From the sequence record OR757454.1: 64,000 nucleotides of DNA. One strand, 5' to 3'. The position numbers and the translations under genes were made by a program. The stretch is from Escherichia phage BYEP02. A model generated the notes under the pieces. That model searched no databases and was not told the origin of the DNA. It worked only from the letters and a program-made list of their open reading frames with translations. Positions 1,486 through 57,904 of this stretch are shown piece after piece (within the stretch, counting starts at the first letter, position 1; every line of letters begins with the position of its first letter).

Positions 1486-2321
1486 AGCCTACTATTTTAA
1501 CTGATATTGATGGAGTGTGTTTAAGCTGGCAATCAGGCCTTCCTTATTTTGCTCAGAAATATAATCTTCCGTTGGAACATATTTTAAAAATGATCCAAGA
1601 TGAAAAATTTATTTCTCCTGGTAAACTTTTTAATTGTGATGAAGAACTTGGTGTCAAGTTAATTGAAAAATACAATCGTTCAGATTTTATTCGTTACTTG
1701 TCTCCATATAAAGATGCTCTGTGTGTAATTAACAAATTAAAAGAAGATTATAATTTTGTAGCTGTTACAGCGCTGGGTGATTCTATTGACGCTCTGCTGA
1801 ATCGTCAATTTAATTTGAATGCTCTTTTTCCTGGTGCCTTCTCAGAAGTACTGATGTGTGGTCATGATTCTTCAAAAGAAGAGTTGTTCAAAAAGGCAAA
1901 AGAGAAATATAACGTAATTTGTTATATTGACGATCTCGCTCACCACTGCGATCACGCGAGTGAAATATTAAGTGTTCCTGTTTATTGGATGGCTCGAGGG
2001 GAACGTGACAGTATTCCAAAAACTGCTCAGCGAGTTTATACATGGAACGATGTAGAGAATAAGCTTTTTTCACCAAAGGAAAATAAAGAAAGTTTTGATA
2101 GTGAAAAAGCTATAAAAGATGTAATTGAAAAGATGATTAAAAACGATTCTTTTCGTTGGAACACTACCTGGAGAACTCCTGGATTTAATCCTTATAATCA
2201 TCTATATCATCCATATCAGACACATCCGTTTCAGACATGGAACTATATTAAACCCGGCGGTATAGAGTATTTGTATAATAGACTTACTAGTGGTGATAAT
2301 ATTTTCCAAGGAGCATTCTAA
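1482..2321 (+). CDS. HAD-superfamily hydrolase-like protein (279 aa)
   Basis: N-terminal ILTDIDGV matches HAD motif I (DxDxT/V); later YIDD motif. Confidence 0.5.
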   Translation: MKPTILTDIDGVCLSWQSGLPYFAQKYNLPLEHILKMIQDEKFISPGKLFNCDEELGVKLIEKYNRSDFIRYLSPYKDALCVINKLKEDYNFVAVTALGDSIDALLNRQFNLNALFPGAFSEVLMCGHDSSKEELFKKAKEKYNVICYIDDLAHHCDHASEILSVPVYWMARGERDSIPKTAQRVYTWNDVENKLFSPKENKESFDSEKAIKDVIEKMIKNDSFRWNTTWRTPGFNPYNHLYHPYQTHPFQTWNYIKPGGIEYLYNRLTSGDNIFQGAF

Positions 2322-4284: not shown

Positions 4285-6612
4285 ATGATGGAACTAATTA
4301 CAGAATTATTTGACGAAGATACTACTCTTCCGATTACAAACTTAAATCCAAAGAAGAAAATACCACAAATTTTTTCAGTTCATGTTGATGACGCAATTGA
4401 ACAACCAGGCTTTCGTTTATGTACCTATACATCTGGAGGTGATACTAATCGTGATTTAAAGATGGGCGATAAAATGATGCACATTGTTCCTTTTACATTA
4501 ACTGCTAAAGGTTCAATTGCTAAATTGAAAGGTCTTGGTCCAAGCCCAATTAATTATATCAATTCAGTTTTTACTGTTGCAATGCAAACAATGCGTCAGT
4601 ATAAAATTGATGCCTGCATGCTTCGTATTCTTAAGTCTAAAACCGCTGGTCAAGCTCGACAAATTCAAGTTATTGCTGATAGACTTATCCGTAGTCGTTC
4701 AGGTGGCAGATACGTCCTTCTTAAGGAACTCTGGGATTATGATAAAAAGTATGCATATATTCTTATACATCGCAAAAATGTATCACTAGAAGACATTCCA
4801 GGAGTTCCGGAAATTAGTACCGAGCTCTTTACTAAAGTTGAATCGAAGGTCGGTGATGTTTATATCAATAAAGATACTGGAGCTCAAGTAACTAAAAATG
4901 AGGCAATTGCAGCATCTATTGCAAGGTCGGTGATGTTTATATCAATAAAGATACTGGAGCTCAAGTAACTAAAAATGAGGCAATTGCAGCATCTATTGCA
5001 CAAGAAAACGATAAACGTTCTGACCAAGCTGTAATCGTTAAAGTTAAAATTTCCCGTAGAGCAATTGCACAAAGTCAATCATTAGAGTCTTCTAGATTTG
5101 AAAGTGAATTATTCCAGAAGTATGAATCTACAGCAGCTAATTTTAATAAACCAGCTACTGCACCTTTAATTCCCGAAGCAGAAGAAATGAAAATTGGAAT
5201 TAATTCATTAGCTTCTAAAACTAAGGCAGCAAAAATCATTGCCGAAGGAACTGCAGATGAACTTCATTATGACTATAAATTCTTTTCAAAAAGTGAGGTT
5301 AATGAAGTTTCTGAAAAAATTAAAGATGTAATTCTTAATGCGATTAAAAATGAACCAACCACTTCAATAAAATGTTTAGAGAAATACGCAGCAGCTGTTA
5401 ATCAATTCTTTGAAGAATATAAAGATAATTGGCTTGATAAACATAATAAAACACGTAAAGGACAGCCAGATGAAGTCTGGGAAGAAATAACTAAAAATTC
5501 CTGGAACGCGACAAAAACTAAATTCCTCAAAAGAATGATTTATAGTTTCTCTGGAATTGGTGCAGGTCCAATGATTGATATTACTATTGCCCGTGATGGT
5601 TCTAAATATACTCCATCACAAAAGCGCGGCATTAGAGAGTATTGCGGTTCAGGATATACTGACATCAATAATCTTCTTTTAGGACGCTACAATCCAGAAC
5701 GATATGATGTAATGAGTGAAAAAGAAATTGAATCTGCTATAAATAACTTAGATTCAGCTTTTGAAAATGGTGACCGCATACCGGAAGGCATCACAGTTTA
5801 TCGTGCTCAAAGCATGACTGCTCCTATATACGAAGCATTAGTTAAAAATAAAGTATTCTATTTCAGAAATTTTGTATCTACTTCTTTAACTCCTATCATT
5901 TTTGGACGTTTTGGATAGTTAAAAATAAAGTATTCTATTTCAGAAATTTTGTATCTACTTCTTTAACTCCTATCATTTTTGGACGTTTTGGAATTACACA
6001 TGCTGGTATTGGTCTTTTAGAACCAGAAGCTCGCAATGAATTAACAGTTGATAAAAATGAAGAAGGAATAACTATTAATCCAAACGAAATAAGAGCGTAT
6101 AAAGAAAATCCTGAATACGTTAAAGTTCAAATAGGATGGGCAATTGATGGAGCAATCCAAACGAAATAAGAGCGTATAAAGAAAATCCTGAATACGTTAA
6201 AGTTCAAATAGGATGGGCAATTGATGGAGCTCATAAAGTTAATGTTGTATATCCAGGAAGTCTCGGAATAGCAACAGAAGCTGAAGTTATTCTACCGCGT
6301 GGATTGATGGTCAAAGTTAATAAAATAACTGATGCTTCTAATAATGACGGAACAACATCTAATAATACAAAACTCATTCAAGCTGAAGTTATGACCACGG
6401 AAGAGCTCACCGAATCGGTAATCTATGATGGAGACCATTTAATGGAAACTGGTGAATTGGTTGCAATGACAGGTGATATTGAAATAGAAGACAGAGTTGA
6501 CTTTGCATCATTTGTTTCATCAAATGTTAAACAGAAAGTAGAATCATCTCTTGGAATTATTGCGTCTTGCATAGATATTGCAAACATGCCTTACAAGTTC
6601 GTTCAAGGATAA
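4285..6612 (+). CDS. alt: ADP-ribosyltransferase Alt, interrupted by three 77-nt duplications
   Basis: N-terminus MELITELFDEDTTLPITNLNPKK recognised as T4 Alt; TATAAATA late promoter 21 nt upstream; total length fits about 682 aa plus three 77-nt inserts. Confidence 0.8.
4846..4999. repeat. 77-nt tandem duplication
   Basis: Period 77 verified; in alt. Confidence 0.9.
5841..5994. repeat. 77-nt tandem duplication
   Basis: Period 77 verified; in alt. Confidence 0.9.
6075..6228. repeat. 77-nt tandem duplication
   Basis: Period 77 verified; in alt. Confidence 0.85.
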
Positions 6613-9422: not shown

Positions 9423-11272
9423 TTAATTAACTCCAGTCGCATCAAATACACCAGGAGCAGTTGTGCTTGTGACAGGTGTCATATTATGAACGACAGTATT
9501 TTTCTTAATAACATTATTAGTATTATTGATTGAAGGAGATGCTTGCTGAACAGGAGCTTGCTGTGCTTTGTTCTTTTCAATAACCTGGACCTGTTTCGCT
9601 TCTGGCGATTTAGCAGAAGTTTCAGGTTTGGCATTAGGCTGATTTTTCTTGAGCTCTTGATAAGTAGCATCAATTTTAGAAAATCTAGCAGCAAGTTCTT
9701 TTTTAACTGCCGGTGAATTGTTTAAATCCGGGTCATCCATCCGTTTTTTAAGGTCTTCATAGGCAGATTCAACAGATTTAACCGTTGAGTCTTTACTCAT
9801 ATCAGCTGAATCAGCATATTTTTCAAAACGAATCATCGCGGCACGTGCTTCATTAGCCTTCATTAAAGCATTTTTTCTTTCTTCAGGTGAAAGCTGCTTT
9901 AATTTTTCTTCTTCTGCTGCACGTTCTTCGTCGGTAGTTAGTGCTTCTTTATTATCAACACCGCGAATCCAATTAGATGCACGAGTTTTCCAATTAGCAA
10001 TTTTATCTAATCCTTTTGCTATCGGACCAAGGTCTCCGTTCATTCGTTTATCTTGATAATTTGCAACTTTTTCTTGGTCTTCTTTATTGAGAGATGCTCC
10101 AGTAGAATTTTGGAAATTTTCCAATGCTCTTCCTTCTACTTCATCAGCAGTATCCTTCATACCAGGAATGACTCGAAGAATTGCTGCAGATAATTTAGCC
10201 ATACCTAATTGAATAAGCTCTCCTAAATTAAAAAGAACACTTCCAAGTCCTTCTATGATAGCTGTTGTCAATCCACCCCAATCTCCCGCTTCCCAAAGTT
10301 GTTTAATTTTATCAATAGAATCAAAGATGCTCTGTAATAAAGGACCCCACCACCCCAATCTCCCGCTTCCCAAAGTTGTTTAATTTTATCAATAGAATCA
10401 AAGATGCTCTGTAATAAAGGACCCCATGTTCCGGTTTCGCTAGAGAATTTAGTAAAATCAGTACTATATAAATCCCAGGCTTTTGAAAATTTATCTGACC
10501 AGTATTTAAAATGAACCATCAACAGGTCTATTCCAACAACAACAGCCAATATCATTGCAGTCATTTTAGCAGCTTCAATAGCAGCACTAACGGTATACTT
10601 AAATAGCATGCTTGATATTTTATCAGTAATTGAAATAGATTTCTTAAATCCAAAATCAACTGTCTTTGTTAATTTATCTAAAGCTTGAGATAATTTTAAG
10701 TTAAATGCTTCTTTTTTCTGTTTTTCTTCTGGTGATTCTTGTTTGGGTTCAACTGGTTGAGGGGTAGGGAAAAAATCAGCGTCAGGATCATTATTAACTG
10801 CTTCGGGAGCTGGTAATAAAGGACCCACAGATTCGGCAGTATCATCCTCAACGACTTTAACAGGAATAGCGCTTTCAACCGTGGCTAAACTAGTTCCCGT
10901 CTGTTGAATTCCAGCTGTCTGAATTTTTTGCTCTAGTAAACTTGTTAATTTATCTAATTTGCTTCCGAGTGATTCACCGATTTCTTTATTAATATTGTTG
11001 CCAATTTCGACAGTTTCAGCAATTAACTCAGAACCAGCAGTAGTATCACTCACTGCGCTTTCTACGTTATCAATTGCTCCAATTATTTCATTCGATTTTT
11101 CTTCGACAGTTTGAGCTATTAATTCAGAAGCAGCTTGAGCATCATCCAATTTCGTAGAAATGTCATTAAGCCCAGATAAAGTATTAGAAGCGGATTTAGC
11201 CGCTTCCTGTGTTGGTTTATTATCTGAAATAACTTTTCTACGCATCGTTTGCATTTCTTGTGGCTTTTTCAT
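9423..11272 (-). CDS. 29: tail tape-measure / baseplate hub protein, one 77-nt duplication inside
   Basis: Length 1850 nt = 590 aa + stop + 77; gene order 28-29-48. Confidence 0.8.
10273..10426. repeat. 77-nt tandem duplication
   Basis: Period 77 verified; in gene 29. Confidence 0.9.
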
Positions 11273-11802: not shown

Positions 11803-12999
11803 TTTTAACCTTAACTGGGTCTATTGTTTCCAGTTTCGTTGCATTAGTGAACATATATAGATGAGTTACTGAATTATTATTGGATAATTCATGGATAACT
11901 TCATCAACGTAAAATTCTGTTTTAAATTGGTTTTTACTATCATTAAAAATAATTTTAACGATAATTCATGGATAACTTCATCAACGTAAAATTCTGTTTT
12001 AAATTGGTTTTTACTATCATTAAAAATAATTTTAACACCAGGAGTCAAGTTAAAATTACCGACAGTAGAACATTTAGCATAGCCATCATATTGCGCCATA
12101 GTTTGAAGACGAATAGCTTCTTCATATCCATTCCTATAAGTCATTTCAGAATAAGCACCTGACCTTGACACTACAATAGAGTTTTCTCCCTTTCCTGTAG
12201 TAATCATTGGCAATGAAGAATCTAAAAATGAATGAGCATAGATAGTAGCGTTTTTCATTGGGTCACGTTTGTGAGGATTCGATTTAGTCAACCAAACGAA
12301 ATCATATGCTAATGGATATTTTAATTCTTGGATGAATTGACCTATTAAAGATGGCTCACCGACAATCATTGGATACGGTTCTTGATTTATCATCATATCA
12401 TAGTCCATCATGTTAACTCCCATGATGTCTTGCCACACAAATACAAATTTGTCACTTCCTACAGCTAGAGCAACTTCTCTAACATACGACAAATAGTTTT
12501 CAAATGTGCTAGTCCATGGAATATCAGGAACATAAGCATTTATAGCATTTATTGCTGGAGTTAATAATGTACGGTCTTGATAAATGACGCCAAGCATTTC
12601 TTTTATAGATTCACCTGCATCAGGGAAAAATGGTCTACCAAATTTAAGATTTTCTATAGAATGAATAGTTCCCAATTCAATAGCAATGATGTTATCGCCT
12701 TTTGAATCGACTGACACGGAAAAATGCTTACATCCATAAATTCGTGTTTTAACATTATTAATATCATTTGCATTAGCTACAGAAATCTGAATTATTTCAT
12801 TTCCATCCATTTTTGTATGGATGTTTTTAGAATCATAAAACTGCAGCATTCCTTCATTTCGGCCATAAAGAGAATCCCGCATAGTTAATGTGGTAATAGT
12901 AGCAGCTAATTCAACAAATCTATTATTACTCCAAGCGTCGTAGCTATCAAATAATTTAACGCTGAGATTTGGATATCCGGGGCGTTGCAACATACTCAT
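11757..12999 (-). CDS. 27: baseplate hub protein, one 77-nt duplication near the 3' end
   Basis: Recognised gp27-like translation; with one copy removed the frame continues ...[15 protein letters not shown]...SSSSNKQ to a stop near 11758, overlapping the gp28 start. Confidence 0.8.
11888..12041. repeat. 77-nt tandem duplication
   Basis: Period 77 verified; in gene 27 3' region. Confidence 0.9.
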
Positions 13000-15303: not shown

Positions 15304-15527
15304 TGAGATATAGCATTGATGATGCTTTTAATTATGAAGAAGAATTTGAAACGGAAATTCAATTCTTAATGAAAAAGCATAATCTTAAGCGTCAGGATAT
15401 TCGTATCCTGGCCGATCACCCGTGTGGTGAAGATGTCCTTTATATTAAAGGAAAATTTGCCGGATATCTTGATGAATATTTTTATTCTAAAGATATGGGC
15501 ATTGATATGCATATGAGAGTTGTATAA
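15303..15527 (+). CDS. hypothetical protein (74 aa), uvsY-downstream
   Basis: ORF overlapping uvsY stop; its 3' end is duplicated by a 77-nt repeat. Confidence 0.5.
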   Translation: MRYSIDDAFNYEEEFETEIQFLMKKHNLKRQDIRILADHPCGEDVLYIKGKFAGYLDEYFYSKDMGIDMHMRVV

Positions 15528-15616
15528 ATAGATATATAGGATATCTTGATGAATATTTTTATTCTAAAGATATGGGCATTGATATGCATATGAGAGTTGT
15601 ATAAATAGATATATAA
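15463..15616. repeat. 77-nt tandem duplication
   Basis: Period 77 verified; 3' end of ORF 15303-15527. Confidence 0.9.
15600..15607 (+). promoter_or_regulatory. late promoter core TATAAATA (small ORF 15633)
   Basis: Exact motif about 26 nt upstream; a second copy at 15523-15530 lies in the duplicate. Confidence 0.4.
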
Positions 15617-15850: not shown

Positions 15851-16165
15851 TTAATTTAAAAGCTTTCTTCTACTTCATCGTCTGAATCTTCTAATTCAGC
15901 TCTTTTTCCTGCCAAAGCATCTCTCACAGAGATGTCATCAGTATCTTTTAATTCAGTTTCTTTGACTCTTTTCTTGTAATAAGCTTCAAGTTCTTCTAAA
16001 CCTTCTAATGTTTGACAAGAGGCAATTTTACCCATAAATTCATCAATAGAAGCTTCATAAAGAAATTGTTTAAATTACCTTCTAATGTTTGACAAGAGGC
16101 AATTTTACCCATAAATTCATCAATAGAAGCTTCATAAAGAAATTGTTTAAATCCTAGTAACATCT
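15846..16165 (-). CDS. UvsW.1-like small acidic protein, one 77-nt duplication inside
   Basis: MLLGFKQFLYEASIDEFMGKIASCQTLEG...; lies just downstream of uvsW after a hairpin. Confidence 0.5.
15999..16152. repeat. 77-nt tandem duplication
   Basis: Period 77 verified; in uvsW.1-like ORF. Confidence 0.85.
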
Positions 16166-16190: not shown

Positions 16191-17854
16191 ATAAATTAAC
16201 TGTTTTCATTACGTAATTAAATTTTTCATCTGCGTAGCGCTGAATACGATCAATGCCGTGTTTTAAAAGATAGTTCAAATGAACATATTTCTTTTTCGTA
16301 TTAGCAGATTTTGGCTTAACACCACAATCATCTATGAGGTCCCAGACTGTTGCGACTGTTTTAGAACCATGCTTACGTAATACACGACCGATTGTTTGTA
16401 ATACAATGATTTTTGATTTAACGCCGTGCGCTATGTCTTAGAACCATGCTTACGTAATACACGACCGATTGTTTGTAATACAATGATTTTTGATTTAACA
16501 CCGTGCGCTAAAACAACATGATGCAGATTTTTAACTGAAATACCAGTAGAAAATACACCATAACTCGCTACTATAATTATTCCTTTACCATTTTCAGCTA
16601 AGGTTTTCATTACGTTGCGGGTTTCGGTATCAACTTCCCCTGATACGTAATAAACTTTATCGTATTCATTTTTAATTAAATCGAAAATAGCTTTACCATG
16701 CGATACATGTTTAAACATGACAAAAGCGTTTTCATCTTTTTGTCATTTTTAATTAAATCGAAAATAGCTTTACCATGCGATACATGTTTAAACATGACAA
16801 AAGCGTTTTCATCTTTTTGTGCAAGCTTAATAGCTAATTTAGCGATCCATTTATTTCTTTTACTGAGCCCAGTAATAATTTTTATTTCTTCTTGGTAAGT
16901 TTTTCCCTTTAATTTAGTAGTGAACTCATCGGGATAGCGAAGAAAAATACTATTAATTTTTAACTCAGTTACTTGTCCATCTTCCATTAATTTAGAGGTC
17001 GTTACTGGCTTAAATATTTCACCAAACATTCCAACATACTGCATGATATTGGCTTTGCCGTCACGTAATGAACCAGACAAACCAAATTTAAACATGCAGT
17101 TATTTAAACCTGATATGATAGATGAAATACTTTTTCCTGTAGCAAGATGGCATTCATCATTCATCATCATTCCAAACTGTGAGAACCATTCTTTCGGTTG
17201 TTTAACTACAGTTTGCCATGTACCAACGACGACTGGTGCATCATTTTTATATTTATCATCTTTTGATGCTCCGCCACCAATTTTCTTTATCATTGCATGA
17301 CTGAATAAACGATAGTCAACAAAGTCATCAGCCATCTGAGTTGTCAGAGCAGTTGTTGGAACAATGATAAGAATTTTACCTTCATAATTTTCCAAATAAT
17401 ATCGCGCAAGCAAAGCTTGAATTAAAGATTTACCAGCAGATGTTGGAAGATTAAGAATTCTACGACGATTAACTAATCCTTCGAACACTGCATCTTTTTG
17501 ATACCAGTGCGGTTCAATTCTTTTATTTCCTGAATAGATTTCTAATTTAGAAAGCCATTCATCAAAATCTTTTCTTGATAATTCTTCTTTTTCGTTAATT
17601 TGTGGGTCAATCCAGGCTTTATAGCCAAAGTTATCACAGAACTTTTTAATTTGCCCGACTAAGCCGAATGGAAGAAGACGATTATAATCTAAAAGACGGA
17701 TTCGTCCATCCCAGTGGCCATATCTGTACTTCGGATTAAAACGATACCCATCAGCTTCAAAGCTAAAGAAATCACGGAGTTCATGAAATGTACTTTCTTC
17801 GCAATCAATTCTCACGTGACTAAAATCATAAAAATGTACTTTAATGTCAGTCAT
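16189..17854 (-). CDS. uvsW: SF2 helicase UvsW, two 77-nt duplications inside
   Basis: Walker A PTSAGKS and DECH box; about 503 aa once 154 nt of duplicate is removed; TATAAATA about 30 nt upstream. Confidence 0.85.
16358..16511. repeat. 77-nt tandem duplication
   Basis: Period 77 verified; in uvsW. Confidence 0.85.
16667..16820. repeat. 77-nt tandem duplication
   Basis: Period 77 verified; in uvsW. Confidence 0.85.
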
Positions 17855-17904: not shown

Positions 17905-18661
17905 ATGATAGATAAAGATTATATTGCAGAGCTGAAGGCTCTTGATGATAATAAAGAAGCTAAGGCTAAATTAGCTGAATATGCTGAACAGTTTGGTATA
18001 AAGGTCAAAAAGAATAAATCTTTTGATAATATCGTTATTGATATTGAAGAAGCCCTCCAGAAGCTCGCTAGTGAACCTATGCCAGAGACTGATGGGTTAT
18101 CTATTAAAGACTTAATTGATGCTGCTGATGCCGCAGAGGGATTAAAATATGACGATGAAGAAGTCAATCCAGAAGCAGCACTTCTGATTGATTCTCCGGT
18201 TAAATCTGACATTAAAATTGAAGTAGTAGAAATGGATAAAATTCCCGAAAATACCGATGTTTTGATTGAAGATACTCCTTTTGTTGAAGAAAAATTTGAA
18301 CAGGCTGTAGCTGAGATTATTGAATCTGAAAAGCCGTCTGTATTTACTCTTCCGGAAAACTTTAGTCCGAATCTTCAGCTGATTGGAAAAAATCCAGGAT
18401 TCTGCACTGTTCCTTGGTGGATTTATCAATGGATAGCTGAAACTCCGGATTGGAAATCTCACCCAACTAGTTTTGAACATGCACTGTTCCTTGGTGGATT
18501 TATCAATGGATAGCTGAAACTCCGGATTGGAAATCTCACCCAACAAGTTTTGAGCATGCGTCAGCACACCAAACTTTATTTAGCTTAATTTATTACATTA
18601 ACCGTGACGGATCAGTTTTAATTCGTGAAACACGCAATTCTTCTTTCGTAACATTAAAATA
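17905..18661 (+). CDS. inh: Inh-like protein (inhibitor of prohead protease), one 77-nt duplication inside
   Basis: About 226 aa after removing the duplicate, matching T4 Inh length; position between uvsW and hoc; acidic. Confidence 0.45.
18404..18557. repeat. 77-nt tandem duplication
   Basis: Period 77 verified; in inh-like gene. Confidence 0.9.
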
Positions 18662-18671: not shown

Positions 18672-20167
18672 ATGACTTTTACAGTTGATATAACTCCTAA
18701 AACACCTACTGGAGTTATAGATGAGACTAAGCAGTTTACTGCTACGCCCAGTGGTCAAACTGGAGATGGACCTATTACCTATGCTTGGACTGTTGATGAT
18801 GCACCGCAGGAAGAAACGTCTGCAACTTTTAGTTATGTACTAAAAGGTCCTGCTGGACAAAAGACTATTAAGGTAGTTGCAACAAATCCAGTTCCTGATT
18901 CTGAAGCTGAAACAGCTGAAATTAGTACAACTATCACAGTTCAAAATAAGACACAAACAACTACTTTAGCTGTAACTCCTGGTAGCCCTGATGCTGGAGT
19001 GATTGGAACTCCAATTGAATTTACCGCTGCCTTAGCTTCACAGCCATCAGGTGCAAACGCTACATATCAATGGTACGTTGACGGTTCTCCTGTGGGCGAA
19101 GCAACTGGCACTACATTCAATTACACTCCTGACGCAAGCGGAGTTAAAACAATTAAGTGTGTAGCTCAAGTAACCGCGACAGATTATGATGCAAAGGAAG
19201 TTACTTCTAATGAAGTGTCACTGACTGTTAATAAGAAAACACAGACAACTACGTTAGCCGTAACTCCTGCTAATCCTCCAGCAGGAGTTATTGGAACCCC
19301 AGTTCAATTTACTGCTACCTTGGCTTCACAGCCACCAGGAGCGTCTGCTACGTATCAGTGGTATGTTGACGGTTCTCTGGTCGATGGAGAAACTACTACT
19401 ACATTTAACTATACTCCTACCACAGTTGGAGCTAAAACAGTTAAGTGTGTAGCGCAAGTAACTGCAGAAAATTACAATGAAAAGGAAGTTACTTCTAATG
19501 AAGTATCATTGACTGTTAATAAGAAAACAATGAATCCACGGGTTACATTGACTCCTCCTTCTATTAACGTTCAGCAAGATGCTTCGGCTACATTTACTGC
19601 TAATGTTACGGATGCTCCAGAAGAAGCACAAATCGAATATTCATGGAAGAAAGATTCTTCTCCAGTAGAAGGGTCAACTAATGTATACACTGTTGATACA
19701 TCATCTATTGGAAGTCAAACTATTGAAGTTACTGCAACTATTACTGCAACTGATTACGATAGCAAAACTATTACAGCAGAAGGTCAAGTTCAGGTAACTG
19801 ATAAAGTTGCTCCGGAACCAGAAGGTGAATTACCTTATGTTCATCCTCTTCCACATCGCACTTCAGCTTATATCTTGATAAAGTTGCTCCAGAACCAGAA
19901 GGTGAATTGCCTTATGTTCATCCTCTTCCACATCGCACTTCAGCTTACATCTGGTGCGGTTGGTGGGTTATGGATGAAATCCAAAAAATGACCGAAGAAG
20001 GTAAAGATTGGAAAACTGAAGATCCAGATAGTAAGTACTACTTGCATCGTTACACTCTTCAGAAGATGATGAAAGACTATCCAGAAGTTGATGTCCAAGA
20101 ATCGCGTAATGGATACATCATTCATAAAACTGCTTTAGAAACTGGTATCATCTATACCTATCCATAA
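18672..20167 (+). CDS. hoc: outer capsid protein Hoc with four Ig-like domains, one 77-nt duplication inside
   Basis: Ig-like repeats (TFTVDITPKTP...; QTTTLAVTP...) and capsid-binding C-terminus ...GIIYTYP; about 472 aa after removing the duplicate. Confidence 0.85.
18949..19542 (+). repeat. diverged in-frame 297-nt tandem repeat inside hoc (two Ig-like domains)
   Basis: Two 99-codon units NKKTQTTTLAVTP...EVTSNEVSLTVNKK, roughly 80-85% identical. Confidence 0.8.
19800..19953. repeat. 77-nt tandem duplication
   Basis: Period 77 verified; 3 mismatches, all synonymous; in hoc. Confidence 0.9.
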
Positions 20168-20746: not shown

Positions 20747-21828
20747 ATGTTTAAAAAGTATAGCAGTCTTGAAAATCATTACAATTCTAAATTCATTGAA
20801 AAACTTTATAGTTTAGGATTGACTGGCGGCGAATGGGTAGCTCGTGAAAAGATTCATGGTACAAATTTCTCGTTGATTATTGAGCGCGATAAAGCAACTT
20901 GTGCTAAACGTACTGGACCGATTCTTCCTGCTGAAGATTTCTTTGGGTATTGATTATTGAGCGTGATAAAGTAACTTGCGCTAAACGTACTGGACCAATT
21001 CTTCCTGCTGAAGATTTCTTCGGTTATGAAATTATTTTAAAGAATTACGAAGATTCTATTAAAGCTGTCCAAGAAATTATGGAAACTTCAGCTGTTGTGA
21101 CTTATCAAGTTTTTGGCGAATTCGCTGGACCTGGCATTCAGAAGAATGTCGATTATGGCGATAAAGATTTTTATGTATTTGACATTATTGTTACTACCGA
21201 AAGTGGTGATGTAACTTATGTTGATGATTACATGATGGAATCGTTTTGTAATTCATTTGGGTTTAAAATCGCTCCACTTTTGGGTCGTGGTAAATTTGAA
21301 GATCTTATTAAACTTCCAAATGATTTGGATTCTGTTGTTCCGTCTTATAATTTTACCGTAGATAATGCAGGTTTAATTGACGCTAACAAATGTGTTTGGA
21401 AAGCTGAAGCCAAAGGCGAAGTATTTACCGCTGAAGGATATGTATTGAAACCTTGTTATCCTTCTTGGCTGCCTAATCGCAATCGTGTAGCCATCAAATG
21501 CAAGAATTCTAAATTTAGTGAAAAGAAAAAGTCTGATAAGCCTATTAAAGCTAAAGTTGAACTGTCAGAAGCTGATAACAAATTGGTGGGGATTTTAGCT
21601 TGTTACGTTACACTAAACCGAGTAAATAACGTTATTTCTAAAATTGGCGAAATTGGTCCAAAAGATTTTGGAAAGGTGATGGGACTAACTGTTCAAGATA
21701 TTTTGGAAGAAACTTCTCGTGAAGGTATTACTCTAACTCAAGCGGATAATCCTTCTTTGATTAAAAAGGAATTAGTTAAAATGGTACAAGATGTACTTCG
21801 TCCGGCTTGGATTGAATTGGTAAGTTAA
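20747..21828 (+). CDS. rnlB: RNA ligase 2, one 77-nt duplication inside
   Basis: EKIHGTNFS adenylation-lysine motif; 334 aa + 77 nt. Confidence 0.85.
20874..21027. repeat. 77-nt tandem duplication
   Basis: Period 77 verified; 6 mismatches, 5 synonymous; in rnlB. Confidence 0.9.
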
Positions 21829-21861: not shown

Positions 21862-23218
21862 TCATCAATGATAATTTTTGGTAGCTTAACACCTAATAAA
21901 ACAGACAAATCTGAACGACCCGCCATTTTATCCATGTCTCCACCATCAATTACTCTTGCTTCTTTTTCATCTTTTGCTACGGTGTAAGGATTTGCTGATA
22001 AAGCATATCTAACTAATAAACCGATAGATGGCTGCAAACTTTCTGGGTCAACTACAACTTTAAATGCACCTACATGTTCAGGGTCATCTAAGTCAAGACC
22101 TTCTGTATACGGAGCATAGAAAATTGATCCAACAATTTCTTTTTCACCGATATTTTCTACTACGCCAACGATTACATAATCTAATGGGCTGTTAGTATCG
22201 CAATAAAGCGGTAAACCATTAGCTAAGAACCCGTAGGCATTTTGTGAAAGATATTTGTCATCTTCTGGTTTATGTTTTAACCAACCTGATGCAGCAAGAA
22301 TCGCAGCGGCACGAGCTTTTGTGAAAGATATTTGTCATCTTCTGGTTTATGTTTTAACCAACCTGATGCAGCAAGAATCGCAGCGGCACGAGCTGAAGCA
22401 ACACAGAACGTTGCCGTATAAGTTGATTCTTTTTGGATATGCGAAACCATTTCACATACCATTCGGTATAATGAACGACCAGCTTCAGGAGCAGATGCAT
22501 AACTCAAATCGATGAATCCAGTATCAGTAATTCCTGTAACTTTATAGCGTTTTGACACTGTAATCAAAGACTGCAGAATGTCTTTATTGATTTCATCTGC
22601 CATTTCAGTTGCAAGCAAATCTTCCAAGAAATTAGGAGCATCGAATCCATTTGCTTCTAAATCTTGTGCTAATTCAACTGTGATGCCAGTTTTAAGTTTA
22701 CGAGATTTAACTGCGGTTTGCCATTTATTAATCTGGAATCTAGCATCCGCAATTTCACTATCAGAGCTTTCAAATTTGCTTGTTGACGCTGCATCAGAAA
22801 ATAGACGAACCTTTAAAAGAACAATTGCAATCTGAAGAGCTAACTCTAAGTCGCTTTCTTCAATATCAGCAAATGGTGTATCTTCTAATACTTTATAAAC
22901 GATATTATTATATTTGAATAAATCGCCTTTATTGAGAGTTAATTTAGACTCTTCTGTTAATTCTGTGATTTGTTCTCGGTCTACATATCCAGCTTCGCCA
23001 GCGTAAGTAGCACCCGTTTTAAACGTAAATTCGTTATCTGGGTTAAGGTATTTGATACCATAAAAAGCAGCAACAGGTTGATTAGTTCTTTGCGTTGCTA
23101 CAATGTCAGAATATATTAATTTAGTGGTAGCGCGAGTCAAAGCAACGAGATTTGGGCGACCGATTGAGTTGCTATTCGTTGTGGTTGATTCGCGCAGAAG
23201 TTCGTTGATTTTAGCCAT
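21858..23218 (-). CDS. 24: head vertex protein gp24, one 77-nt duplication inside
   Basis: Immediately downstream of gp23; 427 aa + 77 nt; TATAAATA 28 nt upstream. Confidence 0.85.
22240..22393. repeat. 77-nt tandem duplication
   Basis: Adjacent copies; in gene 24. Confidence 0.85.
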
Positions 23219-27031: not shown

Positions 27032-28733
<1,702 letters not shown>

Positions 28734-29373: not shown

Positions 29374-31507
29374 TTAACCTGCAAGACCAGTTAACTCGTC
29401 GAAATCTGCACCAGTAGCAGTTGCGACGAAATTAAGTTGGATATAATTTATACTTCTAGCCGGTTGGATGTAGAATGTTGCAACAAACTCATTTCTATCA
29501 ATTACTGACGGAGTGTTATTTGTTGTATCGCAAACTACACGATATTCATAAATTCCACCGAGAGCTTTAATTCCCTGTAAGTATTGGGCAGTTTCTGTGC
29601 GGAACGATGAACGGGTAAACGCGTTGTTTAATTCGAACAAACGATATTTTGAACTACGTCCGATATTCGTTTTCAACATATTAAACAGACGACGAACGTT
29701 AATACGATCAAATGGAGAAGGAACAGAAGTAGCTGTTTTATCACCATACAATACGTAACCATCACCACCTGTACCGGTTACCGGGTTGATAGCTTCTTGG
29801 TATAAACGGTCGCGCTGAGCCTGGCGAGTTTCAATAGCAAGTTTAATAACGTTAAGAATCTGACCACGATTATAACCAGCTGGAGACATCCAAGTCTGAG
29901 ATACGTTATCAGTTCTTGCGCATAAACCAGCAATATCAGCTGCTAATGGAACCCAGCGATTGACATCATTATATTTGTCATACTGATATTTGTAGTTACC
30001 ATCAATTGCTGCATAGGTTGAACTGATATTAAAGTTATTATCAGTGTATGAACCTGTTGCGGTTCTCCAATTGACTAAGTTATCAACAGCGCGAGTTACA
30101 GGAATTCCAACTACAGTTTCGCGCGGTGGTGAGCACAATACTAAGCAATCCTGGCGAGCATCCCCGATTGAAACGACGTGTTTTTGGACAGTAGATGCTG
30201 TTTCTAAAGATTCACCGGCACAAGAACCCGCAATAAACAACTGAACGTCAACAGATTCACGGTCAGCAAAGAAGTCCCAGGCTTCCATTAAATCTCCTGC
30301 TGTTACTTCAGCATTTGATGATAATCCACCAGACAGAGTTAAAATTCCAGAGAAGCCTTCTGGCCAGTTTTGTGCAGTTGCAAAAATATATTCTGAACCA
30401 CCTTTTGCGAAAAAGTCATCGATATAGATGTTACTATCGTAAATATCTTTTTCACCGCGCTTTGTTGAAAGAACAACGCTTTGAACAATAGCATCATTAC
30501 GACGAACTATAATAGCGTACTGTGAATCAGTTTGTGGTCCATATCCAAACACAGTTTTAGCAGTAGATGCACGAGTACCACCGCCTGGATAAATTGGGAG
30601 TAATGCAGAAGCACCTTTTGCATAGTCAGCTTTAGATACTATTTCAATTTCAATTTTATCGCCTAATTCGCCTGGATAAAGCGCTACTACTCCTGGAATT
30701 CCGTATTTTTCGAGATTTGCTTGAAAGCCAACCTCTGTCATAGCAGCTTCAGCATTTTCAATTTCAGCTAATAAAATACCAGAATCAGTAATAATTTTTC
30801 CAAGAGTTATTACTGCAGCTAAACCAGAGCATTTTCAATTTCAGCTAATAAAATACCAGAATCAGTAATAATTTTTCCAAGAGTTATTACTGCAGCTAAA
30901 CCAGAGGAAGATGAAGAAATTTCCGCAGTCCAGTTAGAACCTAATTCCGGATATTCACCGACTTCTTTAGCTTTAGCGATAATTTTTGCAGTAGGAATAT
31001 TAATTTTCTTAATTTTTCCATCTACGTCTACTTCAGTAATTTTACCTTCAGTTTCAATAGCATCTGAAACATATTTGACCGTGATTTTATCTCCAACTGC
31101 GTAGTTACTACCTGGGGTAGAAATTGTGTATTCAATATTACCGGCAATCGGAGATGAGTTTTTAGCGGTATCTCTATCGACAGCACGCACAACTCGCAAA
31201 TCATTTCCATATTGTAAGAAATTCATTGCAGACATAAAATAGTCAGCAGTTTCAGCTGTAGGTTGACCAAAAGTATTAACTAAATCTACTTCATTTGTAA
31301 CCTGTTTGATCTGAAAAGCAGGACCCCACTGGAATTTACCGGCCAAAGCTGCTGTACCAGTAGAGTTATTAACCACGGTGCTTTGAACTGAAAAGCAGGA
31401 CCCCACTGGAATTTACCGGCCAAAGCTGCTGTACCAGTAGAGTTATTAACCACGGTGCTTTGAACCGTAGTTTCTTTGAGCTCAATGCCCGGAGATAATA
31501 AAGTCAT
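29374..31507 (-). CDS. 18: tail sheath protein gp18, two 77-nt duplications inside
   Basis: MTLLSPGIELKETTVQSTVVNN recognised; 659 aa + 154 nt. Confidence 0.9.
30753..30906. repeat. 77-nt tandem duplication
   Basis: Adjacent copies; in gene 18. Confidence 0.85.
31311..31464. repeat. 77-nt tandem duplication
   Basis: Adjacent copies; in gene 18 5' region. Confidence 0.85.
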
Positions 31508-31535: not shown

Positions 31536-34165
<2,630 letters not shown>

Positions 34166-34195
<30 letters not shown>

Positions 34196-35025: not shown

Positions 35026-36958
<1,933 letters not shown>

Positions 36959-36991: not shown

Positions 36992-38531
36992 TATGCTGGT
37001 GATAAAAAGGTAGAAAGTAATACCCATTCGCCGTCTTTACGAACGTAAGCTTGGCCATCTTTTGGAGCTTCAGGAATATAACCTGCTTCTTGAGTAATAC
37101 CCATTCGCCGTCTTTACGAACGTAAGCTTGACCATCTTTTGGAGCTTCAGGAATATAACCTGCTTCTTGTAGAGCTTGAACATCACCTTGCAGAGAAGAT
37201 ATACTACCTTTGGCTGTATTCACTTCTTGTGTAACTGATGCAATGTTGGTTTCGTTAGCTTTTATTGAATTGGTTAATCCGCGTTCTTCGACAGTTGAAC
37301 CGTTTGGGTTAGTTCCATTTACTAAAGTATTTAACGCTACAACTTGCCCTTTAATTCCTGTGCTGTTATTACCAATTTCTACCTGTAGGTTTTGAACATC
37401 GTTATTCAAGCCTGAAACAGAAGTTTCAATTGTAGAAACTCGGTTTAAAAGAGACCCAGGAGGAGACGGTTGTCCACCGCTAGAATCAGTTCCAACAATT
37501 TGGTTTAACCATGAAACATTCGCTCTTAAACCAGATGAAGTGTTTTCACCGACGATTCCATTCAGAGATTCGATTGAAGTTGTATTATCTTTAATTTGAC
37601 CTTTAATACTCGAAGGAATATCATCTGAACCAATGGAAGTTTCAATAACTGTTAAACGCTGTTTAATACCTCCACTTTGATTTAGCTCTAAATTAATAGA
37701 TGCAATATTATCAGTGTTTGTATTAACACTCGTGATAATCGAATTATTTCCTGGATATCCTATTGAGGTCTTAATAGCACTAATGTCAGATTCAAATGTT
37801 GTCTGTTTAGTGTCAATTTCATTTAAACGACTATAAACGTTTTGTGAAAATGATGGTGGTTTCGGTCCAAGCTCTTCACGAAGATTACCAACTTCAATAG
37901 TCAAAGAACCTACATCAGATTCAATAAATTTTGTTTCTAATTCGCTTAAACGTATTCCCTGTGAAGTAATGGCATCAGTATTATTAATAATGCGATGCTT
38001 CATTCCACTACTAGGATTTCCTACAACAGGAAGACCATTAATATCTTGACCTGCGTATTGTCCAAGTTCACGCTTTATCCACAGTAAATCATTTCTGATC
38101 GTTCTGTATACAGAGTTGGCCTCGGAGTTAAATGGACCAATATCAGCAAGAATACTGTCAACCGTACTATTAGTTCCATTTAATATTTCTGTATGTTCAC
38201 TGGTTAGCGTTTTGAGGTCAGAAATATCCTTTTTATTGATACCTATTTGGGCCAAAGCTTCAATATCACCAGATACATCTAAGATGCCCTGAATTGTTTT
38301 AATATCACTATTTGCGGTTTCTAAAGATGTTTTAAGTATTCCAATGTTTTTATCAAGAACTTCAACATTTCTTAGTACAGAAACTGTAGGTCTATTCATT
38401 GAACCTTCGCTTCCATACTGCGTGTCAGCTCCTAATATTTCTTCGCCGTTTTTAATCCAGGAAATGCGGCTCTGGCCCTCTGCAGGAGGGCCGTCAACGA
38501 ATGGTAAGTCATTCAGTACAATATCTGTCAT
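36992..38531 (-). CDS. wac: fibritin (whisker), 77-nt duplication in the C-terminal foldon
   Basis: Foldon [23 protein letters not shown]; true end ...LSTFLSPA then stop near 36992; the 528-aa track ORF is a duplication read-through. Confidence 0.85.
37018..37171. repeat. 77-nt tandem duplication
   Basis: Adjacent copies; duplicates the wac foldon-coding segment. Confidence 0.85.
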
Positions 38532-40188
38532 TCTTTTACCTTAATTATGTAGTTTAAAGAAATGTTCCATGGACGTGTTTCATTTCCAATTAATTCAGGA
38601 CGATTTAATGTATATTTGGAATTACGCTGCGATTCTGGGTCAATTTCATATCCGTCATTGGTGAAGTATGAACGGTTATCCCAGTCAAGTCCTTTACGTG
38701 TACCAACAAAATTTGATCTACGGGTATTACCGAATGCCCCAGAATCATCATGCTCACCAAATCCACCAGCATGTTTATGATAAGACATCTGCTGTTTTTG
38801 TACTTCACCAACATATCCACCGGTACAACCTACACCTAATCTAGGCTTACCAAATTGGTCATTACCATTAACGTTTGGATTTGTTAAGTGAGAGCCACGA
38901 CCAGAGCCACGAACAAAAAGACCACGCATATCAGGTAATCCAGGATTTGATGAGCTTCCGCCGTATCTTGTTCCAATTCTGAGCCGCGAACAAAAAGACC
39001 ACGCATATCAGGTAATCCAGGATTTGATGAACTTCCGCCGTATCTTGTTCCAATTCTAGAAGCATATAATGGACAATCTGATGCTGAAACAGTTCCACCG
39101 TGGCAAAAACGCCAAGCATCACTAGGAAGACTATCAGCGGCCCACATCATAATAGCTCCGACAGGAATAGTTCTATCAATTTCATTTTGTGTTACGACAC
39201 GCTTACCTTGAATATAACCACCGGTCATGTTAACTGTTCCGGTAATATTTGCTCCACCTGAAGCTATTGTAAGCGTGTTATTAATGCGGAGTGTTCCATT
39301 AATAGTTTGACCGCCTCTTTGATGGATAACGTCAGCATTCCAAGCTAGTGCTGATGAAGCATCACCTCCACTCTGTGAGCCGGCAGTTGTAGTTAATTTA
39401 ACTACGCCTCTCATTGACGTTGTAGAACCACGACCATTAAGAGTTGCACCAGTAACAGCAACAGAAGCATTATTCGAGTTAACTTCTGACTGTGTTCCTA
39501 ATTTAATTACGCCTTTATATTCTTCAGTAGCAGATGAATTCATAAACGTATAAGGAGAAATTGCATAGCCTTCTCTTAAAGTTCCCTGACGAACCTGCGC
39601 TACTGTTGCTAATTGAACAACACCTTGGTCCGATTCGGTAGCTGTGGTTTCAGAAGGAGCAATTTGCGCAATTAATTTAATAGCTAACTGCTGCGTTTTT
39701 AATGGAGTCATTGCAGTAGTATCATCTGCACCAGCTAATGCTTGCGGTAGAGATGATAACTTAATAACGCCAAGTGAACTTTCAGAAGAAATTCGTGTAT
39801 CAAAAATGTGATTAATTGCTGTAGTAAATTTAGCCGGAGTTATAGATGATTCATTATTAACACCAGCTACAGCTTCATCGTCTGTTGAATAACGTGTAAG
39901 TCCATAAACTTCTTCGGTAGCATTTGGATATGATAATCTTGTTGCCAACGTTGCCGGTGTAACTGCTTTGGTATTATTAGTTCCATCTATAACTTCCTGT
40001 TCAGTGGCAAGAAATAAAATTCCCTTTGTTGTTGACGATGCATCAGGAACTCCATTTACGCCAGCAGGAGAAATGGCTGCTATAGCAGCTTGAACATCAG
40101 TAATCTCTTCCGGAAAATTTGTACCAGTTGGATCAAATTTTACATAACGAGATTCATTAGAAACGTGTTGATATGTATTATTACTCAT
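38528..40188 (-). CDS. 12: short tail fibre gp12, one 77-nt duplication inside
   Basis: [28 protein letters not shown]...; 527 aa + 77 nt. Confidence 0.9.
38904..39057. repeat. 77-nt tandem duplication
   Basis: Adjacent copies, 2 mismatches; in gene 12. Confidence 0.85.
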
Positions 40189-40844
40189 GCTGTTCTCTCA
40201 AAATGATAAAGTACTGTAGGAGTCTGCTGATTATCTAAAGTTACAGTTTGTGCGCCTAATAAATTCCATGTACCATAGCCAGGTTTAGACTCAGAAATAA
40301 TTTCCTGCGAAATAGTTATTCCATATGTAGAATATGTGCTTAATACATGTTTTTGATTGTCTAAATAAGTAACTTCTAATTTACTACCATCTGTTGGATG
40401 GTCTTTATATGAATTGATAGCAGTAAATGACGCAATAGCTTCTTGTAGTGCAACACGAACTTTGGCAACAAACTCGATAGCTGTCATTCCGGTTGTTGCT
40501 GAAACTGGAAGACCAAATACTAATACAGTAACAGGAGAACCAGGAGGAAGCGAATCATCTGTCACAGTTCCTGAAAATGCCCAATAATCAGTTTGAGAAA
40601 CACCCTCAGGAGAAACACCAGTTTTATTAGTAATAATTGTACCAACGTCTTTTATAGAAAAATTATGAACGTCATTAATAGCTGATTCTACGTTTGGTTC
40701 ATAAAATCCTTTCGCTAATTGAGAAATTGTCACTGACCCAACTGATTGACGATTCATTACATCTATATTACCAGCTTTAGGTCTAAAACCAAGAAAATCG
40801 GCTAAGCGGGAAATAACTCCCGCTTTATTATTAAGTAAACTCAT
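40185..40844 (-). CDS. 11: baseplate wedge / short-fibre attachment protein gp11 (219 aa)
   Basis: [20 protein letters not shown]...; start inside copy 1 of a junction duplication. Confidence 0.85.
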
Positions 40845-40953
40845 TATGCAATCCTTATCCAACGATAAACTGTAATAGCTAAGCGGGAAATAACTCCCGC
40901 TTTATTATTAAGTAAACTCATTATGCAATCCTTATCCAACGATAAACTGTAAT
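40800..40953. repeat. 77-nt tandem duplication
   Basis: Spans gene 10 stop and gene 11 start. Confidence 0.85.
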
Positions 40954-42729
40954 ATATGGTTGAATGTTAGTTATTGATGTTGGCGGAGTGTGAGTAGAGT
41001 TAGTAGATGCTTTAGCTTCACGGTATTTAGTGTAGATTGGACCGGATTCATCTGGATCGTATTGACACCCACCAACAATGACTGATCCATTTTCATCAAC
41101 TATTAGAACTTCTTCATCTGTTTCAGTTGCAGGAAGATTAGCATTTTCCAATGTAACAGAAGTAGAACCACCTGTTCCACCTGCAGTATGTGAAGGATTT
41201 CCACCCGAATCTAAATCGTTGTTATTTAGAGCAAAGTTAGGGTCCGAAATATCTTCATTCCATCCAACTAAAACTTTTCCTTGCCCAAATAATTTCCATG
41301 AGCCGAATCCCATATATGTAACAGGGTTATTTGGATTAACAGCGTTTTCATATATAGTTCCAATAGGATAAATCGTATCAAAGATATTTGAAACAGCATT
41401 AAATTCGCGTTGGTAAGATTGAACTGCTTCTACATTTGGCCAACCAATTTTATCGAAGTCTGTTAAATTTACATCACCAGAAATATCTACTCCCGGTCCT
41501 TGCGATACATAAAGATTATCAGTTTCATCAATAATCTCATCTTTTGTTAATAATGTACCCAAATCATTATTAAACCAGGTGATATTGATAATGTCACCAT
41601 GCTCAAATACTCTATCGAAATGTAAAATTTCCGGTATGCCGTTTTCATCAGTTTCAACTGAATAATCGGTATGAGATTGTTCCCAAGTTCCACCTAAAAC
41701 AGAGCATTCTACTTCATCGTCTGAATCGGCACCAACACAATGAAATAATGGCATTCCAACTGTTCCAGCCAATTCCTGCAAAATCCCGTTAAAACGAACC
41801 TCAAGAGAATTAGGATTAATAGGTTCTCCTGGAATTAATCCAAAAGCAGAAAATGGAATTGATTTCATTGTTGATAAATCAGTAACGTAAATACTTCCTT
41901 CTAAAGAAGTTTTTGACGTTAATTTTGAATCTAACAATCTAATTTGACGTCTTGTATATGAACTTCTCCACTGCGATACACCATCCATAAATGTTTCAAT
42001 TTGAACAGTGTCACCAATATTACAAGGCTGTCTTAATCGAATATTAAATCCATCAAGAGGAACTAGTTCTCCTTCATTTTCGCCCGGAGAGCCAAAATCG
42101 CTGTTTTCGCTAAACACATCGCCGTAATACAATTCGTTACCACGATGTTTTACTCTGATGTTATTTACATTATAACTGGTTCCACGGAAAACATCTAAAA
42201 AGTCTGTTTGTCCTTGGACTTCGACTAAAAATTCTTTACGAGCTACATTACTAATGTCTGAACTGGTAATTTTGTCAATTTGTTTATTTTTGACATATTC
42301 CCAACGTCCTGGGGCACAATACACTAGTTCTAAATCGCTGAATTGAACATTAATTTCAACTGGTACTGCAGACCCTTTAATCGTATCGCCGGAAGCAGCT
42401 ACTAGTGTAACTGGGTTGACGTTCCATGTAGCAAATACGTCTCTAGCTCTAATTACCTTGTTGTAATCATTAACTGTACCCTTTGGAAGATTTATAGTCA
42501 CTCTTCCAGAAGATGTATTAATAGCGTATGATTTTCCCCATTCTGCTGTTAATGTTTGTCCTGATGAAGCATTATAAGTTTTCCAGGCACCAGCTGAATA
42601 TGGAACATCACCATCACCGAGTTCATAATAAAGCTCATCAAAGTTTTCATTTATTTTTATACCACCTTTACGCAGGTAGTCACCGGTACCATCATCTACA
42701 ACATTACCGATATTAATATTTTGTTTCAT
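40921..42729 (-). CDS. 10: baseplate wedge protein gp10 (602 aa)
   Basis: 602 aa; gene order 9-10-11. Confidence 0.9.
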   Translation of the reverse strand: MKQNINIGNVVDDGTGDYLRKGGIKINENFDELYYELGDGDVPYSAGAWKTYNASSGQTLTAEWGKSYAINTSSGRVTINLPKGTVNDYNKVIRARDVFATWNVNPVTLVAASGDTIKGSAVPVEINVQFSDLELVYCAPGRWEYVKNKQIDKITSSDISNVARKEFLVEVQGQTDFLDVFRGTSYNVNNIRVKHRGNELYYGDVFSENSDFGSPGENEGELVPLDGFNIRLRQPCNIGDTVQIETFMDGVSQWRSSYTRRQIRLLDSKLTSKTSLEGSIYVTDLSTMKSIPFSAFGLIPGEPINPNSLEVRFNGILQELAGTVGMPLFHCVGADSDDEVECSVLGGTWEQSHTDYSVETDENGIPEILHFDRVFEHGDIINITWFNNDLGTLLTKDEIIDETDNLYVSQGPGVDISGDVNLTDFDKIGWPNVEAVQSYQREFNAVSNIFDTIYPIGTIYENAVNPNNPVTYMGFGSWKLFGQGKVLVGWNEDISDPNFALNNNDLDSGGNPSHTAGGTGGSTSVTLENANLPATETDEEVLIVDENGSVIVGGCQYDPDESGPIYTKYREAKASTNSTHTPPTSITNIQPYITVYRWIRIA

Positions 42730-50203: not shown

Positions 50204-50574
50204 CTATTTAATGAATACTTTAGATGATGCCTGAGCCACAGTATCACCGCATGATATTGGATCAGCCATTTGAACAGCTTTCTTTCCAGTGACATATACC
50301 TTAGAAGTTCTAGGTTGTGTCACTCCGCCATGTGTTTCATATGGCTTTTTAATTTCTGTATGTTCTGTAATTGGATCACCTGCTACGAGAACAGCAATTC
50401 CTCCAGTGAATACTTTACTTTGTGTAGCATTCACAACTGTTGGAGGCCAGGATCGCCTGCTACTAGAACAGCAATTCCTCCAGTGAATACTTTACTTTGT
50501 GTAGCATTCACAACTGTTGGAGGCCACGCTTCATGGCCAGCAGTAACACACTTATCATAACTTAATCCTGACAT
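50204..50574 (-). CDS. 5.4: PAAR-repeat spike-tip protein gp5.4, one 77-nt duplication inside
   Basis: [29 protein letters not shown]...; 97 aa + 77 nt; between gp5.1 and gp6. Confidence 0.7.
50373..50526. repeat. 77-nt tandem duplication
   Basis: Adjacent copies, 2 mismatches; in gene 5.4. Confidence 0.85.

Positions 50575-57053: not shown

Positions 57054-57904
<851 letters not shown>

Follow-up and report, generated by a model that had tools for sequence, protein, structure and literature searches.

The Escherichia phages slur03, slur08 and slur14 (NC_042129; Tequatrovirus) are the closest relatives, throughout, of the DNA described here (98.4-99.1% identity), a 64-kb stretch that was analyzed as a whole and is called the window below. 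The window is T4-like and extends from alt/gp30 through gp20-gp24 and gp5-gp12 to the tRNA cluster; it belongs to Tequatrovirus, with collinear T4-type gene order and high nucleotide identity to members of the genus. Gene order and ten tRNAs are common to the window and the slur phages, and many stretches of the window are identical to slur03; unlike the window, however, slur03 contains none of the duplications analyzed here. The remaining sequence, which differs from slur03, we refer to as the X haplotype.

The largest default k of the assembler SPAdes with 150-nt reads is 77. Identical 77-bp contig ends are a documented signature of SPAdes (PMC9409062), and these repeats resemble those of the window in that they have the same length, are computational, need trimming and break the genes that they span. 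They differ in that they lie on the ends of circular contigs, whereas the copies in the window are homologous (32 of 53 pairs differ), lie at internal joins and have a fixed polarity. Strain-chimeric or reference-patched assemblies also resemble the window, since in both, adjoining stretches are at or near 100% identity to different relatives (here slur03 versus phiC600P9, SG1 and BGP) and switch abruptly at no biological boundary. The sawtooth of the window recurs 54 times, however, which is unusually systematic for such assemblies, and this regularity points to one coordinate bug rather than to sporadic mis-joins. Natural T4-like mosaicism likewise involves genuine, selection-filtered variants common to other Tequatroviruses, but natural recombination leaves no duplicated overlap, no frameshifts and no slur03-type block behind all 54 joins.

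Tandem overlaps of 77 nucleotides

The entire window was scanned for tandem two-copy repeats at all periods of 20-139 nt, and the only periods found were 77 nt (53 sites) and 81 nt (one site). Tandem Repeats Finder detected one more 77-nt site, at 60531, where the copies differ by a one-base indel. When the window was cut at the 54 junctions of 77-nt period (53 exact and one with the indel), 55 pieces of irregular length (212-5649 nt) were obtained, all of which align to slur03 over their full length, with neighbors overlapping by exactly 77 nt in slur03 coordinates. The 81-nt repeat sits within the 54th piece. The junctions other than that in rnlB, which is treated separately, are given below with one seamless switch; entries are exact 77-nt junctions unless described otherwise, each range holds both copies, and strand is not assigned.

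1274..1427, hypothetical gene, 1 mismatch
2283..2284, seamless internal switch from slur03 to X between adjacent bases in piece S01 (1351-4922)
4847..5000, alt, copies identical; mismatches to phiC600P9 0/200 in left flank, 15/200 in right flank
5839..5992, alt, copies identical
6077..6230, alt, copies identical
10273..10426, gp29, copies identical
11883..12036, gp27, copies identical
15462..15615, uvsY.-1, copies identical
16000..16153, uvsW.1, 1 mismatch
16357..16510, uvsW, 2 mismatches; mismatches in left flank 0/200 to phiC600P9, 11/200 to slur03
16667..16820, uvsW, copies identical
18406..18559, inh, 2 mismatches
19799..19952, hoc, 3 mismatches, synonymous
22241..22394, gp24, copies identical
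27890..28043, portal gene gp20, 1 mismatch
30753..30906, gp18, copies identical
31312..31465, gp18, copies identical
31960..32113, terminase gene gp17, 1 mismatch
32441..32594, gp17, copies identical
33638..33791, gp16, 4 mismatches; exception with 3 non-slur03 alleles on right, slur03-like on left
34042..34195, gp16/gp15, copies identical
35492..35645, gp14, copies identical
35801..35954, gp14/gp13, copies identical
36025..36178, gp13, 6 mismatches, synonymous
37016..37169, wac, 1 mismatch
38904..39057, gp12, 2 mismatches
40801..40954, gp11/gp10, copies identical
42737..42890, gp9, 1 mismatch
44119..44272, gp8, 3 mismatches
45492..45645, gp7, copies identical
46796..46949, gp7, copies identical
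47523..47676, gp7, 1 mismatch
49541..49694, gp6, 2 mismatches
50373..50526, gp5.4, 2 mismatches
50749..50902, gp5.1, 3 mismatches
51266..51419, gp5, 1 mismatch
51632..51785, gp5, 1 mismatch
51978..52131, gp5, 9 mismatches (8 synonymous); left copy has the BGP allele at 9/9
52592..52745, gp5, copies identical
53118..53271, gp5, 1 mismatch; exception with non-slur03 allele on right
53386..53539, gp53, 1 mismatch
53667..53820, gp53, copies identical
54969..55122, gp2, 1 mismatch
55420..55573, gp2/gp3 intergenic, 2 mismatches
55657..55810, gp3, 2 mismatches
56248..56401, gene 1 start, 3 mismatches (2 synonymous, 1 noncoding)
57194..57347, gp57A, 1 mismatch
57438..57591, gp57B, 1 mismatch
58098..58251, ipI, copies identical
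58490..58643, hypothetical gene, copies identical
59353..59506, intergenic, 1 mismatch
60322..60475, tRNA-Pro, 8 mismatches; left copy is a BGP-like tRNA-Pro allele ending at the junction
60531..60685, tRNA-Ser 3' end/tRNA-Thr 5' end, left copy 77 nt (run of four T), right copy 78 nt (run of five T, as in slur03)
61887..62048, 81-nt junction of opposite polarity, slur03-like in the left copy, X-like from the right copy onward
62829..62982, ORF starting at 62805, 4 C/T third-position mismatches

Protein-coding genes wholly contain 45 of the 54 overlaps, and as 77 nt equal 25 codons plus 2 bases, each intragenic overlap shifts the reading frame. In the uncorrected window, 38 of 71 slur03 genes are full length, and the truncated ones include those for the portal (gp20), sheath (gp18) and terminase (gp17), gp5 (with five junctions), gp6, gp7 and gp8-gp12. 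Deletion of either copy at each junction brings the number of full-length genes to 68 of 71; the three exceptions are hoc and gp54, which vary naturally in length, and one ORF that leaves the end of the window. A constant length equal to an assembler k (the 53 exact 77-nt sites), absence of the repeat from relatives and restoration of genes upon its removal are all properties of a k-mer artifact. A 39-mer spanning a junction had no match among the viral, genome or metagenome contigs searched, and the products of three junction-truncated ORFs were looked for and are not on record. The 77-nt duplications thus reflect faulty assembly rather than the biology of a phage.

Two haplotypes and the differences between the copies

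The junction singled out in a preliminary description of this DNA lies in rnlB (20874-21027) and consists of two copies.

20874..20950, strand not assigned, left copy of the flagged junction, X haplotype within rnlB, 77 nt at the end of piece S12 (19876-20950)
20951..21027, strand not assigned, right copy of the flagged junction, first 77 nt of piece S13 (20951-22317), slur03 haplotype

The preliminary description counted six differences between these tandem copies, five synonymous and one A to V, and we re-found all six (CGC/CGT, GCA/GTA [A to V], TGT/TGC, CCG/CCA, TTT/TTC and GGG/GGT). The left copy is 100% identical over its 77 nt to Salmonella phage SG1 and carries six differences from slur03. 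The 100 nt ending in this copy are also 100% identical to SG1 and have 9 mismatches to slur03, and the final 301 nt of the left piece have 4 mismatches to SG1 and 14 to slur03. On the other side, the right copy equals slur03 at 77/77 positions, the 400 nt from this copy onward show 0 mismatches to slur03 versus 40 to SG1, and piece S13 matches slur03 with 0 mismatches over its full 1367 nt. The rnlB of the window is thus SG1-like N-terminally and slur03-like C-terminally; X near rnlB also resembles phage slur07 (98.3%). At least 80% of a 501-nt query across this junction was covered by 492 phage records, and in the 25 of these listed, the match spans 424 nt, that is, 501 minus 77, so that the duplication is absent there.

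The same kind of difference recurs throughout the window. Among the 53 exact 77-nt junctions, 21 pairs of copies are identical and 32 have 1-9 mismatches, giving a total of 78 mismatches (57 transitions and 21 transversions). We tabulated them by codon position and stem pairing over the whole window, as the preliminary description had proposed, and the distribution is non-uniform, as it had predicted: codon positions 1, 2 and 3 account for 6, 2 and 58 of the mismatches, respectively, and noncoding sequence for 12 (p = 5e-20 for the position 3 excess). Fifty-nine of the coding mismatches are synonymous and 7 nonsynonymous, while random changes at the same sites would be expected to be synonymous in 21.8% of cases (p = 1e-31). 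Outside the left copies, the window differs from slur03 at 800 sites, with 92, 49 and 624 differences at codon positions 1, 2 and 3, respectively (634 synonymous and 131 nonsynonymous), and the spectrum at the junctions is indistinguishable from this background (chi-square p = 0.19). A spectrum of this kind, with 58/66 coding mismatches at position 3 and 59/66 synonymous, is that of natural divergence between haplotypes in a two-haplotype assembly.

At the tRNA-Pro junction, six of the eight differences compensate each other in stems, making up two base pairs of the anticodon stem and one of the T stem. A seventh belongs to a fourth pair, the other base of which is situated immediately beyond the copy, and the eighth maps to the variable loop. 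In its left copy, this junction has the allele of phage BGP. Rfam recognizes the left copy as a tRNA fragment (60341-60399; model positions 8-63) that is cut at the junction, and ARAGORN calls the right copy only. The individual counts made earlier also held: all three differences in hoc are synonymous, the ORF starting at 62805 has its four C/T third-position differences, and in gene 1 both coding differences are synonymous, with a third difference in noncoding sequence. With this excess of synonymous, third-position or stem-compensatory changes, the copies do differ like orthologues from related phages and not like random errors, as had been proposed; the copy differences are natural inter-strain variants rather than sequencing errors.

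For the assignment of alleles we compared slur03, BGP, ESh36, phiC600P9, SG1 and slur07, with RB32 and RB33 among the search matches; these relatives are closer to the window, and more discriminating, than T4, T2 and T6. One allele is that of slur03 at 78/78 sites, and it lies in the right copy at 74, in the left copy at 4 and in neither at 0 (p = 1e-17). At 51 of the 53 exact 77-nt junctions, the right copy matches slur03 at 100%, and non-slur03 alleles occur in right copies at two junctions only (33638 and 53118). Odd first-base alleles in four right copies proved to be boundary ambiguity, as they disappear when the rightmost equally good boundary is chosen. Within 200 nt on each side, the ends of left pieces differ from slur03 at 2.04% of positions and the starts of right pieces at 0.47%. 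The expectation that left and right flanks would match different relatives was therefore borne out, both by these rates and by SG1 versus slur03 at rnlB, and adjoining stretches that match different relatives are a feature of two-haplotype assemblies.

The X pieces amount to ~36.6 kb of the window and are 2.4% divergent from slur03. In the first ~17 kb, X is phiC600P9/BYEP01-like: positions 2300-4922 are 100.0% identical to both phages over 2623 nt, and agreement with phiC600P9 is complete across the left flank (0/200 mismatches) at junctions 4847, 16357 and 16667, with a return to slur03 in the right flank. In gp5 and tRNA-Pro, X is BGP-like. A single known genome behind X was considered and rejected, since phiC600P9 fits the first ~17 kb only. 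The best database matches of the other X pieces reach 98.9-99.0% (PD112 or CrRp10), and a 4-kb probe concatenated from nine X ends was uninformative, since the distances between its parts within individual records were too large for the matches to be connected. As judged from these alignments, X may be either a single unsequenced mosaic phage or more than one haplotype.

Direction of the sawtooth

All 54 junctions of 77-nt period share one polarity. Pieces start as slur03 and remain free of mismatches to it for at least 77 nt in 52 of 54 cases (median 328 nt, maximum ~1.9 kb); most of them later turn into X without any overlap and then stay X through their final base. Mismatch-free runs against slur03 have a median of 328 nt on the right of a junction and 64.5 nt on its left; the run on the right is the longer one at 48 junctions and the shorter one at 6 (Wilcoxon p = 5e-8), while at random control positions the median runs in the two directions are 89 and 90 nt. 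In a permutation test that preserved the clustering of mismatches, the next 77, 154 and 300 nt beyond the copy contained 23, 45 and 109 mismatches versus 60, 121 and 234 expected (P <= 0.0008), and the sequence preceding the junctions was ordinary X background. As slur03-type sequence runs significantly past the copy, the idea that the foreign part is a 77-nt reference seed only was ruled out.

The internal switch to X can be sharp. Piece S01 carries 47 slur03-type alleles in a row and then 63 of phiC600P9 type, with the switch at 2283|2284, and other internal switches were localized to within 6-18 nt. The identical pairs of copies (21/53, or 40%) are as frequent as random 77-nt X stretches without a difference from slur03 (38%), and this chance-level fraction indicates that the overlaps are homologous sequences and not shared graph k-mers. 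The 81-nt repeat, which is single copy in slur03 and in BGP, has the opposite polarity and adjoins a net 4-nt deletion in X downstream; our reading, a loose one, is that the left edge of an X piece was placed wrongly here.

Origin of the overlaps

We consider it very probable that the window is a computational chimera with an off-by-k error and not the genome of a physical phage. What the sequence shows is a chain of 55 pieces along one linear T4-like coordinate system, in which each next piece restarts in the slur03 haplotype 77 nt ahead of the point where X stops, so that the same 77 bases are written twice, as X and then as slur03. That the copies are identical where the two haplotypes agree and differ where they are polymorphic follows from their being the same locus in two haplotypes. 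Contig-like X pieces may have been laid onto, or gap-filled with, a linear slur03-like backbone, and if the end of a contig was recorded as the start of its last 77-mer instead of its last base, the backbone would resume 77 nt early. The constant one-sided offset points to such an off-by-k coordinate error; the assembler and the step at fault are our inference. At 60531, where 77 nt of X face 78 nt of slur03 across an indel in a T run, it appears that the restart was placed by homology, at the position corresponding to the first base of the last 77-mer. The proposal in the preliminary description, that a mixed or stitched assembly joined close relatives into a mosaic with 77-nt overlaps, is supported by the spectrum and the flanks. 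Our analysis goes beyond it in the identity of the slur03 partner, the fixed direction, the second, seamless switch within most pieces and the homologous nature of the overlaps. By sequence comparison, the two relatives then envisaged appear to be a minimum, as the slur03-like partner is constant and the best match of X varies by region.

The backbone may have come from outside, as a reference genome, or from a second strain that was assembled along with the first. The non-slur03 alleles in the right copies at 33638 and 53118 indicate that it was not literally the deposited slur03. An external reference is favored by the identity of slur03-type pieces to a deposited genome, by the identity of X to no single genome and by the need for linear coordinates; a mixed sample is favored by the same two sets of right-copy alleles and by the several related phages in the slur series. 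Some of the internal switches from slur03 to X could also mark places where X itself is naturally mosaic.

Graph vertices would also account for the invariant length of 77 and for the 21 pairs of identical copies, and 77-bp contig-end repeats are known from SPAdes. Thus, SPAdes contigs of k = 77 from mixed strains might have been concatenated in the order of a reference with their de Bruijn-graph overlaps untrimmed, with the differences arising from later polishing or mismatch correction by mixed reads, and a mixed sample is plausible given that the slur series has several Tequatroviruses, including the slur07 that X resembles at rnlB. We nevertheless regard this as improbable. Neighboring contigs share an identical k-mer, both copies being one graph vertex, yet 32 of 53 pairs differ at up to 9 of 77 bases, one further pair has an indel, and the 40% of identical pairs is the chance level for independent haplotypes. 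Moreover, a strand-symmetric graph has no direction, whereas the right copy is slur03 at 74/78 sites; switches between adjacent bases or within 6-18 nt are impossible as k = 77 paths; and nine linked BGP-type alleles in one copy are not expected from polishing.

Given slur03-type pieces that match a database genome at 100%, and an X piece that does so with phiC600P9/BYEP01, the window might instead be a deliberately stitched, simulated or model-generated sequence in which fragments of existing phages were joined in silico through 77-nt homologous overlaps. This appears very improbable: the other X pieces reach no more than 98.9-99.0% identity to any database phage and so were not simply copied, the irregular piece lengths (212-5649 nt) are contig-like and unlike designed fragments, and cloning overlaps would be identical. 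Real tandem duplications in a phage genome, for which nothing speaks but their presence in the sequence, can practically be dismissed, since a viable genome with event-specific lengths would be expected, while here 54 events share one uniform length, 45 shift the frame in genes that include portal, sheath, terminase and many other essential structural genes, the duplications are absent from the relatives examined, and the two copies hold alleles of different phages.

With an off-by-k chimera as the preferred reading, the significance of the finding is one of data quality only. Truncation or a frameshift affects 33 of 71 genes in the uncorrected record, and rnlB, gp5 and tRNA-Pro are among those that are chimeric between two phages; gene calls, protein clusters, repeat statistics and recombination inferences drawn from it would mislead. 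The signature, namely a tandem repeat of constant k length, reading frames that return on collapse, synonymous differences and a reference-ward polarity, can be used to flag similar records. Deleting the right copies regains the X haplotype at the junction sites, although the slur03-type stretches that follow may not belong to X. It is possible, but unlikely, that two Tequatroviruses co-replicated in the sample, one slur03-like and the other an unsequenced mosaic related to phiC600P9, SG1 and BGP. If so, some of the seamless switches would be genuine recombination joints of a mixed infection, kept by accident in a faulty assembly.

Mosaicism at rnlB and divergence in the alt block

Across rnlB, the type carried by Salmonella phage SG1, slur07 and phiC600P9 differs over 400 nt by approximately 10% from the type shared by slur03, the closest genome over the whole window, and BGP, while just upstream of the gene the same two types are only about 1-3% different. 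Such an abrupt change in divergence between the types marks a sharp natural mosaic boundary among Tequatroviruses, close to where rnlB starts. The alt region (4923-6900) constitutes a hypervariable block in which the window is highly divergent from phiC600P9 and ESh36: a 25-nt stretch often holds 5-10 mismatches or more. The window is of the slur03/BGP type throughout this block. Two alt-like genes are found in phiC600P9 and one at the slur03 counterpart.

Repeats within genes and a hairpin in the 81-nt repeat

Three repeat regions were located within coding regions of the window:
18936-19511: two tandem 288-nt units in hoc, 78-80% identical to each other
51404-51554, minus strand: 24/48-nt repeat run in gp5, 65-72% identity
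26793-26881, minus strand: imperfect 18-nt repeat in the gp67/gp68 prohead-core region, 4.9 copies, 63% matches

The hoc units correspond to the Ig-like domains that recur in the head decoration protein. The relatives vary in the length of Hoc: phiC600P9 and slur07 have 376 amino acids (aa), BGP 472 aa, ESh36 568 aa and slur03 664 aa. Once one copy per junction is removed, the window encodes a Hoc of 472 aa, the same length as that of BGP. The gp5 run, which probably codes for the repeated motif of the C-terminal beta-helix needle, is natural and bears no relation to the 77-nt junctions, the sites where adjoining window pieces repeat, even though the repeat search merges it with the junction at 51266. 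The gp67/gp68 repeat probably encodes an acidic low-complexity stretch.

The 81-nt unit repeated at 61887-62048 closes with a hairpin that resembles a terminator, GCCCCGACC GAAA GGTTGGGGC and then a T run. The stem reads GA in one copy and AG in the other, and its pairing appears to be kept via G-U wobble.

tRNA and homing endonuclease genes

60158-61256: cluster of ten tRNA genes (Leu, Gly, Pro, Ser, Thr, Met, Tyr, Asn, His, Arg)

The tRNA-Tyr gene was called by ARAGORN and missed by Rfam at the gathering threshold. An identical set of ten is present in slur03, in which an HNH endonuclease gene precedes the cluster, whereas BGP has Gln and lacks His.

Homing endonuclease genes were found in two relatives (own coordinates of each genome):
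ESh36, 16406-17023 and 34407-35219: sites at uvsW/inh and also at gp14/gp13
phiC600P9, 36515-37132: uvsW/inh interval

Neither slur03 and BGP nor the window has these genes of ESh36 and phiC600P9; presence/absence polymorphism of this kind is typical of T4-like phages.
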